The position numbers and the translations under genes are program-made. A DNA stretch of 58,355 nt, counting the filler, from Sphacelaria rigidula (Eukaryota): assembly GCA_964200075.2 (NCBI GenBank). It is 4 parts of 4 records of this genome, joined end to end, with 100 filler letters (N's around TTAATTAATTAA, not from the genome) between each part and the next. Parts side by side here need not be neighbours in the genome. Positions count along the whole stretch, not along the records: positions 1 to 14,517 come from CAXNAA020002212.1; 3 more parts are not named here. One strand, 5' to 3'. The notes below the pieces were generated by a model. It saw only the letters and a program-made list of their open reading frames with translations. It did not search any database and was not told where the DNA came from. Shown in pieces: positions 12,971 through 13,670 of the stretch. The number at the start of each line of letters is the position of its first letter. Positions within the stretch are counted from its first letter, which is position 1.

Positions 12971-13670
12971 CACAGAAGTGTCAAGATATATTGAGTCAAA
13001 GCGACGCGTAGCATATTGTTACCGTAATATAGATTGAACGCAAACCATGCAATAGCATTGTTTTTCCAATATATATTGCGCACGCCCATCGCATAGCTCT
13101 TGTGCAGCCAATATATATTGCACACGCTTGCGGAGGAATATATTGAGCGTTTTGGGCATGTGGTGATACATCTTTGAATGGCGCCCGCGAACATACACCT
13201 GCCCACCATACTAATTCAAATACACTTTCCAATCTACATGTTGAAATCAAAATATATTGCTACACCAATATTTGTTGTGACCGTCGGTTCCCTCTTGTAT
13301 CGTCCGCCCGATATATTTTGGACGCATTGACGCAGGACATATTGGGGCGGCAATATATATTGGCGCTTCGGGTGTAGAGTATCTTGAATCATCAATAAAT
13401 ATATATTGGCCCCGTGTGGCAGCCAGTATAATACTCGATAAATATATATGGTGCCTTCACGCATCAAAATATTACTCGGCCGATATATATTGAGGTGGCG
13501 CGTGTCGTGATATATTGTTCGGTTGATATATGTTGCATGTCGCGGGCCTTGACATATTGGTGGCACAATATATTTTGACCCTCTCTCGTGCCATCGTATT
13601 GCTCGCCCAATATATATATATTGACCACCCGACGCGTCGACATATTGAGCGGGCAATATATATTCAAGAG
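12971..13670. repeat. Interspaced 42-43-bp-period array (YATATTG-N6-CAATATATATTG-N16/18), about 14 units in two blocks
   Basis: Block 12982-13146 has about 4 units and block 13253-13664 has 10 box pairs. The conserved AT-rich boxes are separated by non-repeating GC-rich spacers. The array begins CACA-N7-CAAGATATATTG. Confidence 0.9.

Follow-up and report, generated by a model that had tools for sequence, protein, structure and literature searches.

A Phased Array of AT-Rich Boxes in Sphacelaria rigidula, Probably the Body of a High-Copy Non-Autonomous DNA Transposon

Introduction

At positions 12971–13664 of a 58,355-bp stretch of DNA from the brown alga Sphacelaria rigidula (assembly GCA_964200075.2), a pair of conserved boxes recurs in alternation with a pair of variable segments whose lengths are nearly constant. 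The whole stretch is here called the window. Is this array a source of guide RNAs, or is it a part of a mobile element? The alternation of two conserved boxes with two variable segments is also seen in TIGR arrays, which have 5–15 units. TIGR arrays are described as 36-nt units with two 8–12-nt repeats and two 9-nt (up to 12-nt) spacers; they contain box C/D motifs, are adjacent to a Nop-domain Tas gene and are processed to 36-nt RNAs, and the hosts described are prokaryotes and viruses of prokaryotes (PMC12045711). An initial annotation considered two possibilities for the algal array: a CRISPR/TIGR-like dual-spacer guide array, or a lattice of binding sites in a DNA transposon related to another element at 1596–3459.

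Below, the arrays built on the box ATATTG are referred to as family 1, and the element at 1596–3459 as family 2. The coordinates of the features are listed in Table 1.

Results

Structure of the Repeat Unit

The ten-unit block is composed of head-to-tail units of 42–46 bp at 13254–13665 (+). Each unit contains, in this order, box 1 (ATATTG), six variable nucleotides, box 2 (CAATAT(AT)nATATTG, of which the basic form is a 12-nt palindrome) and 15–19 variable nucleotides. Box 1 starts at 13254, 13297, 13339, 13381, 13424, 13469, 13512, 13554, 13596 and 13642. In the upstream block, box 1 starts at 13013, 13055 and 13097, and copies of box 2 alone are located at 12982–12993 and 13134–13145.

The pattern ATATTG-N6-CAATATATATTG, with up to three mismatches, is found 20 times on the two strands of the 58,355-bp window, where 0.04 matches are expected. 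None of 100 dinucleotide shuffles reached 20 matches. All 20 matches fall in two clusters, 7582–7887 and 13013–13665. Seven of the ten units in the block and all three upstream units match; the units starting at 13297, 13381 and 13424 are more decayed than the other block units. The ten units that the initial annotation had placed at 13253–13664 are present, and its group of about four units at 12982–13146 consists of three full units, the remainder being the two box-2-only copies.

The boxes and the spacers are very different in conservation. When the 20 units are compared in pairs, they are on average 0.75 identical in box 1 and 0.80 in the core of box 2, versus 0.29 in the 6-nt spacer and 0.30–0.32 in the long spacer. 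The spacer values are around the chance level for a sequence of 61% GC. The initial annotation had stated that any function would be refuted if the boxes were no more conserved than the spacers; this is not the case (75–80% versus 29–32%). Its description of the spacers as GC-rich holds, with a GC content of 0.61–0.63 versus 0.21 in the boxes. The length of the long spacer is near-constant, as had been noted, with a range wider than the 16–18 nt given there (15–19 nt in 17 cases). There is also a weak consensus, ..TG...AC, at the 3' end of the long spacer, ahead of ATATTG.

Box 2 had been recognized as a palindrome. It is a palindrome of 12 nt, sometimes lengthened by AT pairs. Such (AT)n slippage generates a box 2 of 24 nt at 7637–7660 and 7692–7715, in two units of the array at 7510–7895; at 13393 and 13608, it measures 16 nt. 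The period of the arrays is 42–43 bp, and periods of 45–55 bp are seen only at the units with an (AT)n-expanded box 2. In 9 of the 20 units, box 2 reads CCAAT, the first C being the last base of the loop, and 8 of 17 long spacers start with G, which generates a partial CCAAT/ATTGG.

The sequence ATTG-N6/7-CAAT occurs 22 times in the 58 kb, and 20 of the 22 occurrences are within the three lattice elements. The density of ATTG is 15–32 per kb in these elements versus 4.1 per kb window-wide, and the most frequent spacing from ATTG to ATTG in them is 42–43 bp. The spacers of the arrays at 7510–7895 and 12971–13664 are unrelated, and their boxes are alike. The same boxes in spite of unrelated spacers suggest that the boxes have been under constraint in this lineage of elements.

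The boxes had also been proposed to form a hairpin around the six variable nucleotides. In the predicted minimum free energy fold, the boxes pair with those of different units, and no unit hairpins are formed, which is against a guide array. The array folds better than its shuffles (z = -3.1 for the + strand and -2.1 for the - strand), as could be expected of a guide array. These z values are unremarkable, because repeated palindromes give such values.

Table 1. Positions of the arrays, the related element and the neighboring features in the window.
Feature	Position	Strand	Remarks
Ty3/gypsy-like RT-RNase H pieces	124-854	+	frame breaks
Left 8-bp target-site duplication AAAATATC	1588..1595	.	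flanks the element at 1596-3459
Family-2 inverted-repeat element	1596..3459	+	1864 bp, non-coding; inserted in a Ty3/gypsy-like pol gene
Left inverted terminus CACACTCTAGACAATG	1596..1611	+	13/16 identical to the reverse-complemented right terminus
Family-2 43-bp lattices, CCATTG-N7-CAATAG-ATTTGG	1811-2026, 2284-2500, 3015-3445	+	inside 1596-3459
Right inverted terminus TATTGTCCAGGGTGTG	3444..3459	+	identical to the tip that ends other family-1 copies
Right 8-bp target-site duplication AAAAGATC	3460..3467	.	7/8 identical to the left copy
Integrase piece, Ty3/gypsy-like	3708-4463	+	frame breaks
Second family-1 array	7510..7895	+	about 8 units, orientation as in 12971-13664; overlooked in the initial annotation
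Second gag/RT	9242-11139	+	frame breaks
Lattice array, family-1 copy or copies	12971..13664	+	right tip missing; left boundary uncertain (12971, or ~13221 for the ten-unit block)
Upstream block	12982..13146	+	3 full units and 2 box-2-only copies; ~100-bp box-free gap before the ten-unit block
Ten-unit block	13254..13665	+	consecutive units, boxes 1 and 2 with N6 and N15-19
Repeated short ORF tail, flank outside the array	13668..13930	+	abuts the truncated right end; ORF 13649-13927

A Related Element Inserted in a Gypsy-Like pol Gene

The element at 1596–3459 has 16-bp inverted repeats, and its termini are of the CACAC...GTGTG type. The end-to-end alignment of the two termini shows a score of 27, versus a maximum of 26 in 200 shuffles. 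The insertion point is between RNase H and integrase in the gypsy-like pol, of which the flanking pieces are mapped to 124–854 and 3708–4463. Contigs from public sequencing runs, here numbered with X, include empty sites in paralogous retroelement copies: the junction from 1592 to 3465 is seen in one contig of run X1, one of X3 and four of X4. This joint skips 1872 bp, corresponding to the 1864-bp element plus 8 bp. The element at 1596–3459 is proven to be an insertion of a DNA transposon, and its 8-bp target-site duplication (TSD) comes from this single insertion, with 7 of 8 bases identical.

Inside the element, ATTG-N7-CAAT is followed by another ATTG-like site, with a period of 43 bp. The geometry of this lattice is that of the array at 12971–13664, with a different variant of the boxes. 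The boxes have drifted between the two families (ATATTG/CAATAT versus CCATTG/CAATAG), and the geometry is kept. Self-BLAST reveals that the left and right lattices of 1596–3459 are in direct, not mirrored, orientation. The direct orientation of the arrays at both ends is unusual for subterminal binding sites.

Copies in Public Sequencing Runs

Logan contigs from four public runs were aligned to positions 1200–14500 of the window at ≥80% identity. At this identity, the array is covered by >100 contigs in each run (counted at position 13032). In run X3, 83 array contigs extend past 13664 into ACATATTGTATTGTCCAGGGTGTG, followed by AT-rich letters; the consensus agreement is 0.74. The last 16 nt of ACATATTGTATTGTCCAGGGTGTG are identical to 3444–3459 of the window, the right tip of the family-2 element.

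Several differences between the contigs and the window are located in the boxes. At position 13032, T is seen in 107 (X1), 86 (X3) and 97 (X4) contigs versus G in the window, which changes TAATATAGATTG to the canonical box. At position 7869, G in 78 contigs of X1 restores ATTG. At position 13610, 4 nt are absent from 46 contigs of X1, leaving the canonical 12-mer box. Because these three differences shift the window copy toward the canonical box, the boxes represent the state that is ancestral and conserved in the family. At position 7539, 8 nt are left out in 32 contigs, representing length variation of (AT)n among copies.

The aligned contigs probably share the spacers of the window as well, because ≥80% identity was required and the boxes account for only ~42% of the unit. 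The same spacers would thus recur across dispersed copies, a conclusion drawn from the identity threshold and not from the letters of the contigs themselves.

In the DNA runs, the summed depth of contigs over the arrays is 17–60 times that over 9636–11855, a rough measure that does not correspond to copy number. In run X7, guessed to be RNA, contig depth follows that of the DNA runs.

One contig of X1 joins 13246 to 7536. This joint, together with the unrelated spacers of the two arrays, suggests that there are sub-families with different filler sequences.

Termini of Family 1

The sequence at 7520–7533 (ACAATACAATATGT), just ahead of the first box of the array at 7510–7895, is exactly (14/14) the reverse complement of letters 1–14 of the right-end consensus. 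Since ACAATACAATATGT mirrors the right end, family 1 has inverted termini of ~24 nt. The outer 10 nt of these termini are common to family 2, and the inner 14 nt contain two CAAT half-sites. At its start, the array at 7510–7895 has the inner portion of the left inverted terminus. Based on the comparison of tips, 7510–7895 represents a left end and ~8 units, and 12971–13664 a copy without its last ~24 bp. The full length of family 1 is ~385 bp (7510–7895), as estimated from decayed copies only. At the truncated right end of 12971–13664, a different repeated sequence adjoins. No TSD was found for either of the two family-1 copies, of which the outer 10-nt tips are decayed or missing.

Other candidate boundaries were rejected. 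The letters CACA at 12971, taken as a transposon start in the initial annotation, are not confirmed as a left tip: their alignment to the left end of 7510–7895 scores 18 versus a shuffle maximum of 27. A second left tip around 13221 scores 27 versus a shuffle maximum of 38. Both are dismissed because the alignments are no better than those of shuffles. The sequence at 13951–13966 resembles the right tip (11/16), and is not claimed as its remnant because at least 8 equally good matches are present elsewhere in the window. The joint of one contig from 6952 to 8039 is not accepted as the bounds of the array at 7510–7895, because 6521–6956 is a distinct high-copy element.

Genomic Surroundings and Gene Content

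The ORF at 39969–41417 (-) contains the EsV-1-7 cysteine-rich motif (E = 2.8e-57), a domain reported to have proliferated in brown algae (PMC12477816). The window is eukaryotic, and it fits a brown alga. Its first 15 kb are a mosaic of mobile elements that have decayed.

Among 95 ORFs of ≥110 aa in the whole window and 83 ORFs of ≥40 aa in 7.8–14.4 kb, there are no matches to the Nop, Cas, transposase, BED and hAT-dimerisation families, in an ORF-based search that could miss spliced genes. This agrees with the initial annotation, in which no Cas, Nop or other effector gene had been visible. There are no Pfam matches inside the arrays, and no Rfam matches at gathering thresholds in the whole window. 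The open (-) frame of the array, used as a query for ORFs from other copies, gave no match.

The ORF at 13649–13927, in the flank of the array, has 142 representative proteins at E ≤0.001. They are mostly short fragments aligned at their C-termini, and all are unnamed. The sequence at 13668–13930 probably comes from a retroposon ORF truncated on its 5' side, of which it would be the 3' end (a putative "LINE tail"). None of the nine relatives scanned carries an RT domain.

Sequences outside the genome were also searched. The scan of viral contigs with the 16-nt tip revealed 15 loci, none of which has the lattice. The scan with the 24-nt lattice core revealed at least 119 metagenome loci and 6 viral loci, and none of the matches listed has more than three relaxed units; they look like chance AT-rich matches. 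The literature search for the box and tip motifs gave, among the matches listed, only unrelated primer-like sequences.

Discussion

Origin of the Array

The array at 12971–13664 is best explained as a transposon body. The element would be a non-autonomous DNA transposon with inverted repeats and a high copy number, in which the boxes are putative phased transposase-binding sites. We give this explanation a probability of about 0.7. The array is considered a transposon body because other copies end in the tip of the family-2 element and the body of that element has a like grammar. Family 1 also has the features of MITEs, being short, non-coding, bounded by terminal inverted repeats (TIRs) and high in copy number. 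Three facts suggest that the boxes are recognized by a protein: the contrast between boxes and spacers, the presence of the half-site in the termini of both families, and the geometry kept while the boxes drift. The proposal in the initial annotation of a DNA-transposon lattice related to 1596–3459 is borne out in its structure by the shared 16-nt tip, the grammar and the period; its binding part is plausible.

In this explanation, the canonical element begins with the tip CACACCCTGG-ACAATACAATATGT, continues with 8–14 phased units and ends with ACATATTGTATTGT-CCAGGGTGTG, and the copy at 12971–13664 is short of the final ~24 bp. Each unit of 42–43 bp corresponds to about four helical turns and presents three ATTG half-sites, in the forward direction at 0, in the reverse direction at +12 and again forward at +18, and the GC-rich filler between the half-sites is free to vary. 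A half-site of the ATTG type is also present within the inverted terminus, 11–16 bp from the tip. Most likely, the half-sites are subterminal sites to which an oligomeric transposase, provided in trans, binds through its DNA-binding domain. With a period of about four turns, all units would be placed on one face of the DNA. Many sites on the same face would recruit and concentrate the transposase at the ends of the element, and the high copy number could in part be a result of this concentration.

The array could instead be an inert internal minisatellite, with its boxes kept for another cause, such as a host DNA-binding factor or the slippage and recombination to which AT-rich palindromes are prone. 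This is unlikely, as boxes and spacers would be expected to decay to a like degree after neutral tandem duplication, and the boxes are 75–80% identical with the spacers at the random level. The (AT)n slippage in box 2, variable among copies (46 contigs of X1 at 13610 and 32 contigs at 7539), does agree with a minisatellite, and so does the direct orientation of the arrays at both ends of 1596–3459. The partial CCAAT/ATTGG described above could likewise reflect a host factor. The half-site, however, is also found within the inverted termini of the two families and is thereby linked to the machinery of transposition, and the two families keep the same geometry with different box variants.

It is quite improbable, if conceivable, that the lattice is a dedicated scaffold for a transposase, or for a host factor, to polymerise along one face of the DNA. 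The element would then be a transposon of binding sites only, out-competing its autonomous parent for transposase and maybe serving as a sponge or a regulator. In a still bolder variant of the scaffold, the array might be transcribed, and its AT-palindromes might direct phased small RNAs against the family.

The two arrays share the orientation of the gag/RT pieces at 9242–11139 (+) and flank them at a spacing of ~6 kb, and might be taken for the LTRs or UTR repeat arrays of this gag-RT retroelement. Such an origin is very improbable: self-BLAST shows no similarity between the flanks or regions of the two arrays, their contig depth exceeds that over 9636–11855 by the rough factor given above, other copies end in an inverted-repeat tip, and the two arrays have no related spacers, in contrast to the two LTRs of one insertion.

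There is hardly any probability left for a TIGR- or CRISPR-like guide-RNA array, from which transcripts would be processed to single units with two target-pairing variable segments each, in spite of the alternation of boxes and spacers that suggested it. The geometry, the gene search and the spacer tests are all against it. The unit of 42–43 nt has boxes of 6 and 12 nt and spacers of 6 and 15–19 nt; compared with the TIGR arrays as described, the 36-nt unit, the equal 9-nt spacers, box C/D and locus-specific spacers were not found here, nor was a Nop-domain gene among the 95 and 83 ORFs, and the host is a eukaryote. The features of CRISPR, one repeat of 25–36 nt, spacers of like size differing from locus to locus and cas genes, are absent as well, with no cas family among the ORFs searched. 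The initial annotation had proposed to search for spacer targets against shuffled controls; within the window, none of the 17 long spacers has a better match than the best of 20 shuffles. Among the observations that it had named as speaking against guides were spacers common to dispersed copies and arrays at the termini of transposable elements (TEs). The spacers appear to recur in many dispersed copies, to judge from the identity threshold, and the arrays are located between transposon tips. A tempting false positive is thereby removed: the eukaryotic "dual-spacer array" is, in all likelihood, transposon anatomy, which calls for caution in scans of eukaryotic DNA for arrays.

Relationship to Known Superfamilies

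Superfamily hAT is the most likely affiliation of the transposon (hAT-2-like), and KDZ/Zisupton is the alternative. hAT is preferred because of the 8-bp TSD, inverted termini of short length and tips of the CACAC...GTGTG type, as noted for hAT-2 of Ectocarpus. The 8-bp TSD is seen in one insertion (1596–3459), with 7 of 8 bases identical. The TIRs are short, as in hAT (about 10–25 bp); those of family 2 agree at 13/16 positions, and family 1 has its inner 14 nt mirrored exactly. hAT elements are mobilised by a DDE transposase with a BED finger and a hAT dimerisation domain, for which no gene is present among the ORFs searched in the window. The AAACGG hexamers of Ac/Ds are an example of subterminal repeats in hAT.

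hAT-2_Ec32 (hAT-2_ESi) is described as an autonomous, coding hAT element of Ectocarpus, 8.9 kb in length, with a single intact copy; its termini are CACAC-GTGTG, its TIRs are 21 bp, and its 8-bp TSD is assumed (PMC12477816). The curated table of Ectocarpus TEs in that paper lists no non-autonomous derivative of hAT-2 (PMC12477816). Diffuse reads of siRNA size are reported for the TEs of Ectocarpus (PMC12477816). The tips of the family described here agree with the CACAC-GTGTG noted in the table for hAT-2_Ec32, in a comparison of five terminal letters. Both have short TIRs (21 bp there and 16–24 bp here), a brown-algal host and an 8-bp TSD (assumed there and seen once here). Unlike the single intact coding copy of 8.9 kb, it is non-coding and high in copy number.

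KDZ elements also generate 8-bp TSDs (PMC12730594). Ectocarpus KDZ elements are reported to have 8-bp TSDs and complex ends with repeats in tandem, and most are giant elements of 9–30 kb, with termini listed as GGGxx or CAGTA (PMC12477816). The 8-bp TSD and tandemly repeated, complex termini are found here as well, with the lattices occupying the ends. The terminal motifs listed, GGGxx and CAGTA, are not; the termini here are CACAC...GTGTG.

The architecture can also be compared with transposons whose repeats have been studied for binding. In Hermes, a member of hAT with an 8-bp TSD, the BED domains of the octameric transposase bind short subterminal repeats, which are asymmetric between the two ends (PMC10368747). 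As in Hermes, short motifs are repeated here inside the ends and in or next to the TIR, with an asymmetry between left and right and an 8-bp TSD, and the Hermes repeats are likewise thought to recruit an oligomeric transposase. The Hermes repeats are described as 4-nt motifs distributed irregularly over ~450 bp (PMC10368747). In contrast, the motif here is a composite of 24 nt, a dyad plus a single half-site, which follows a strict phase of 42–43 bp over nearly the whole element.

Emigrant/Lemi1 of Arabidopsis belongs to the pogo superfamily with a TA TSD, and is different from the elements here in these respects; the abstract of PMC1636448 mentions no strict phasing. It is a MITE in which internal repeated motifs are the binding sites for the transposase of the parent element (PMC1636448). 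Like the family here, it is short, non-coding and high in copy number and contains internal repeated motifs, for which binding is reported there and is putative here.

The array is ordinary in kind, and it is an unusually regular natural case of subterminal repeat architecture. Its lattice, with three half-sites in four turns, could be a natural substrate for studying how a transposase of the hAT or KDZ type reads subterminal repeats. The analysis defines a high-copy, non-coding family of a brown alga, with two sub-families that have one 16-nt tip in common. This family may aid the annotation of TEs in brown algae, in which elements of this kind can be relabeled by annotation pipelines as tandem repeats (PMC12477816).

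Sequences adjoining and surrounding the arrays

Each of the two box/spacer arrays, which are read as bodies of non-autonomous DNA transposons, is directly followed by a short ORF tail. The tail behind the second array has 142 relatives, all of them without a name. Most are short fragments, and they match at their C-termini. Both tails presumably resemble the C-termini of ORF2 proteins of non-LTR retrotransposons. If so, 5′-truncated retroposons have landed twice in or beside AT-rich boxes.

The inverted-repeat transposon of the second family (1596–3459) contains another end-like motif, TGTTGTCCAGGGTATA, at 2713–2728. 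It is identical to the right tip at 13 of 16 positions, and about 280 bp downstream of it are devoid of the lattice. Because of this inner motif and the lattice-free stretch, the 1864-bp insertion may be a composite of two copies.

Two repeats stand out when Logan contigs of four public sequencing runs, X3 and X4 among them, are aligned to positions 1200–14,500. The highest summed contig depth, a rough measure and not a copy number, is seen at the 105-bp repeat (9113–9217), with loose contig ends on both sides. This repeat thus looks like a very abundant MITE. It has inverted ends of 21 nt (9111–9131 versus 9199–9219), which are 95% complementary. The element at 6521–6956 ranks second by the same rough measure. 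Loose ends of 59 contigs (X4) lie before it, and those of 114 (X3) and 97 (X4) contigs lie behind it; outside these bounds, the contigs carry unrelated sequence. This element may be SINE-like or MITE-like.

Features identified in the window
Feature	Position	Strand	Remarks
ORF tail	7896–8023	+	short, ends in stop codon; directly after array 7510–7895; translation
ORF tail	13668–13930	+	short, ends in stop codon; directly after array 12971–13664; translation
Element of ~436 bp	6521–6956		sharp bounds, very high copy number; contig alignment
105-bp repeat	9113–9217 and 55130–55235		two places, 95% identical
Long ORF, 483 aa	39969–41417	-	Pfam PF19114 (EsV-1-7 cysteine-rich motif), E = 2.8e-57
Tandem repeat	40704–41530		114-bp unit, 7.2 copies, 86% identity; underlies the EsV-1-7 ORF

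EsV-1-7 ORF and simple repeats

The EsV-1-7 family is characteristic of brown algae and of the giant viruses that infect them. The long ORF encodes at least four EsV-1-7 cysteine-rich motifs.

Trinucleotide runs (CGT)12, (CAT)12, (CAA)20 and (CAG)14 are arranged back to back at 14948–15114, and a perfect (TAC)25 is found at 17682–17756. A 197-bp unit is present twice at 19109–19502 with 96% identity. Runs of 44 N occur in three pairs (14518–14617, 29131–29230 and 43744–43843), with 12 bases between the two runs of each pair, and the pairs recur every 14,613 bp. They have the look of masking applied to the record rather than of gaps in the assembly, and their intervals are those of the filler between the joined parts, which is not genome sequence. 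A G-run of 61 nt is seen at 43847–43907.
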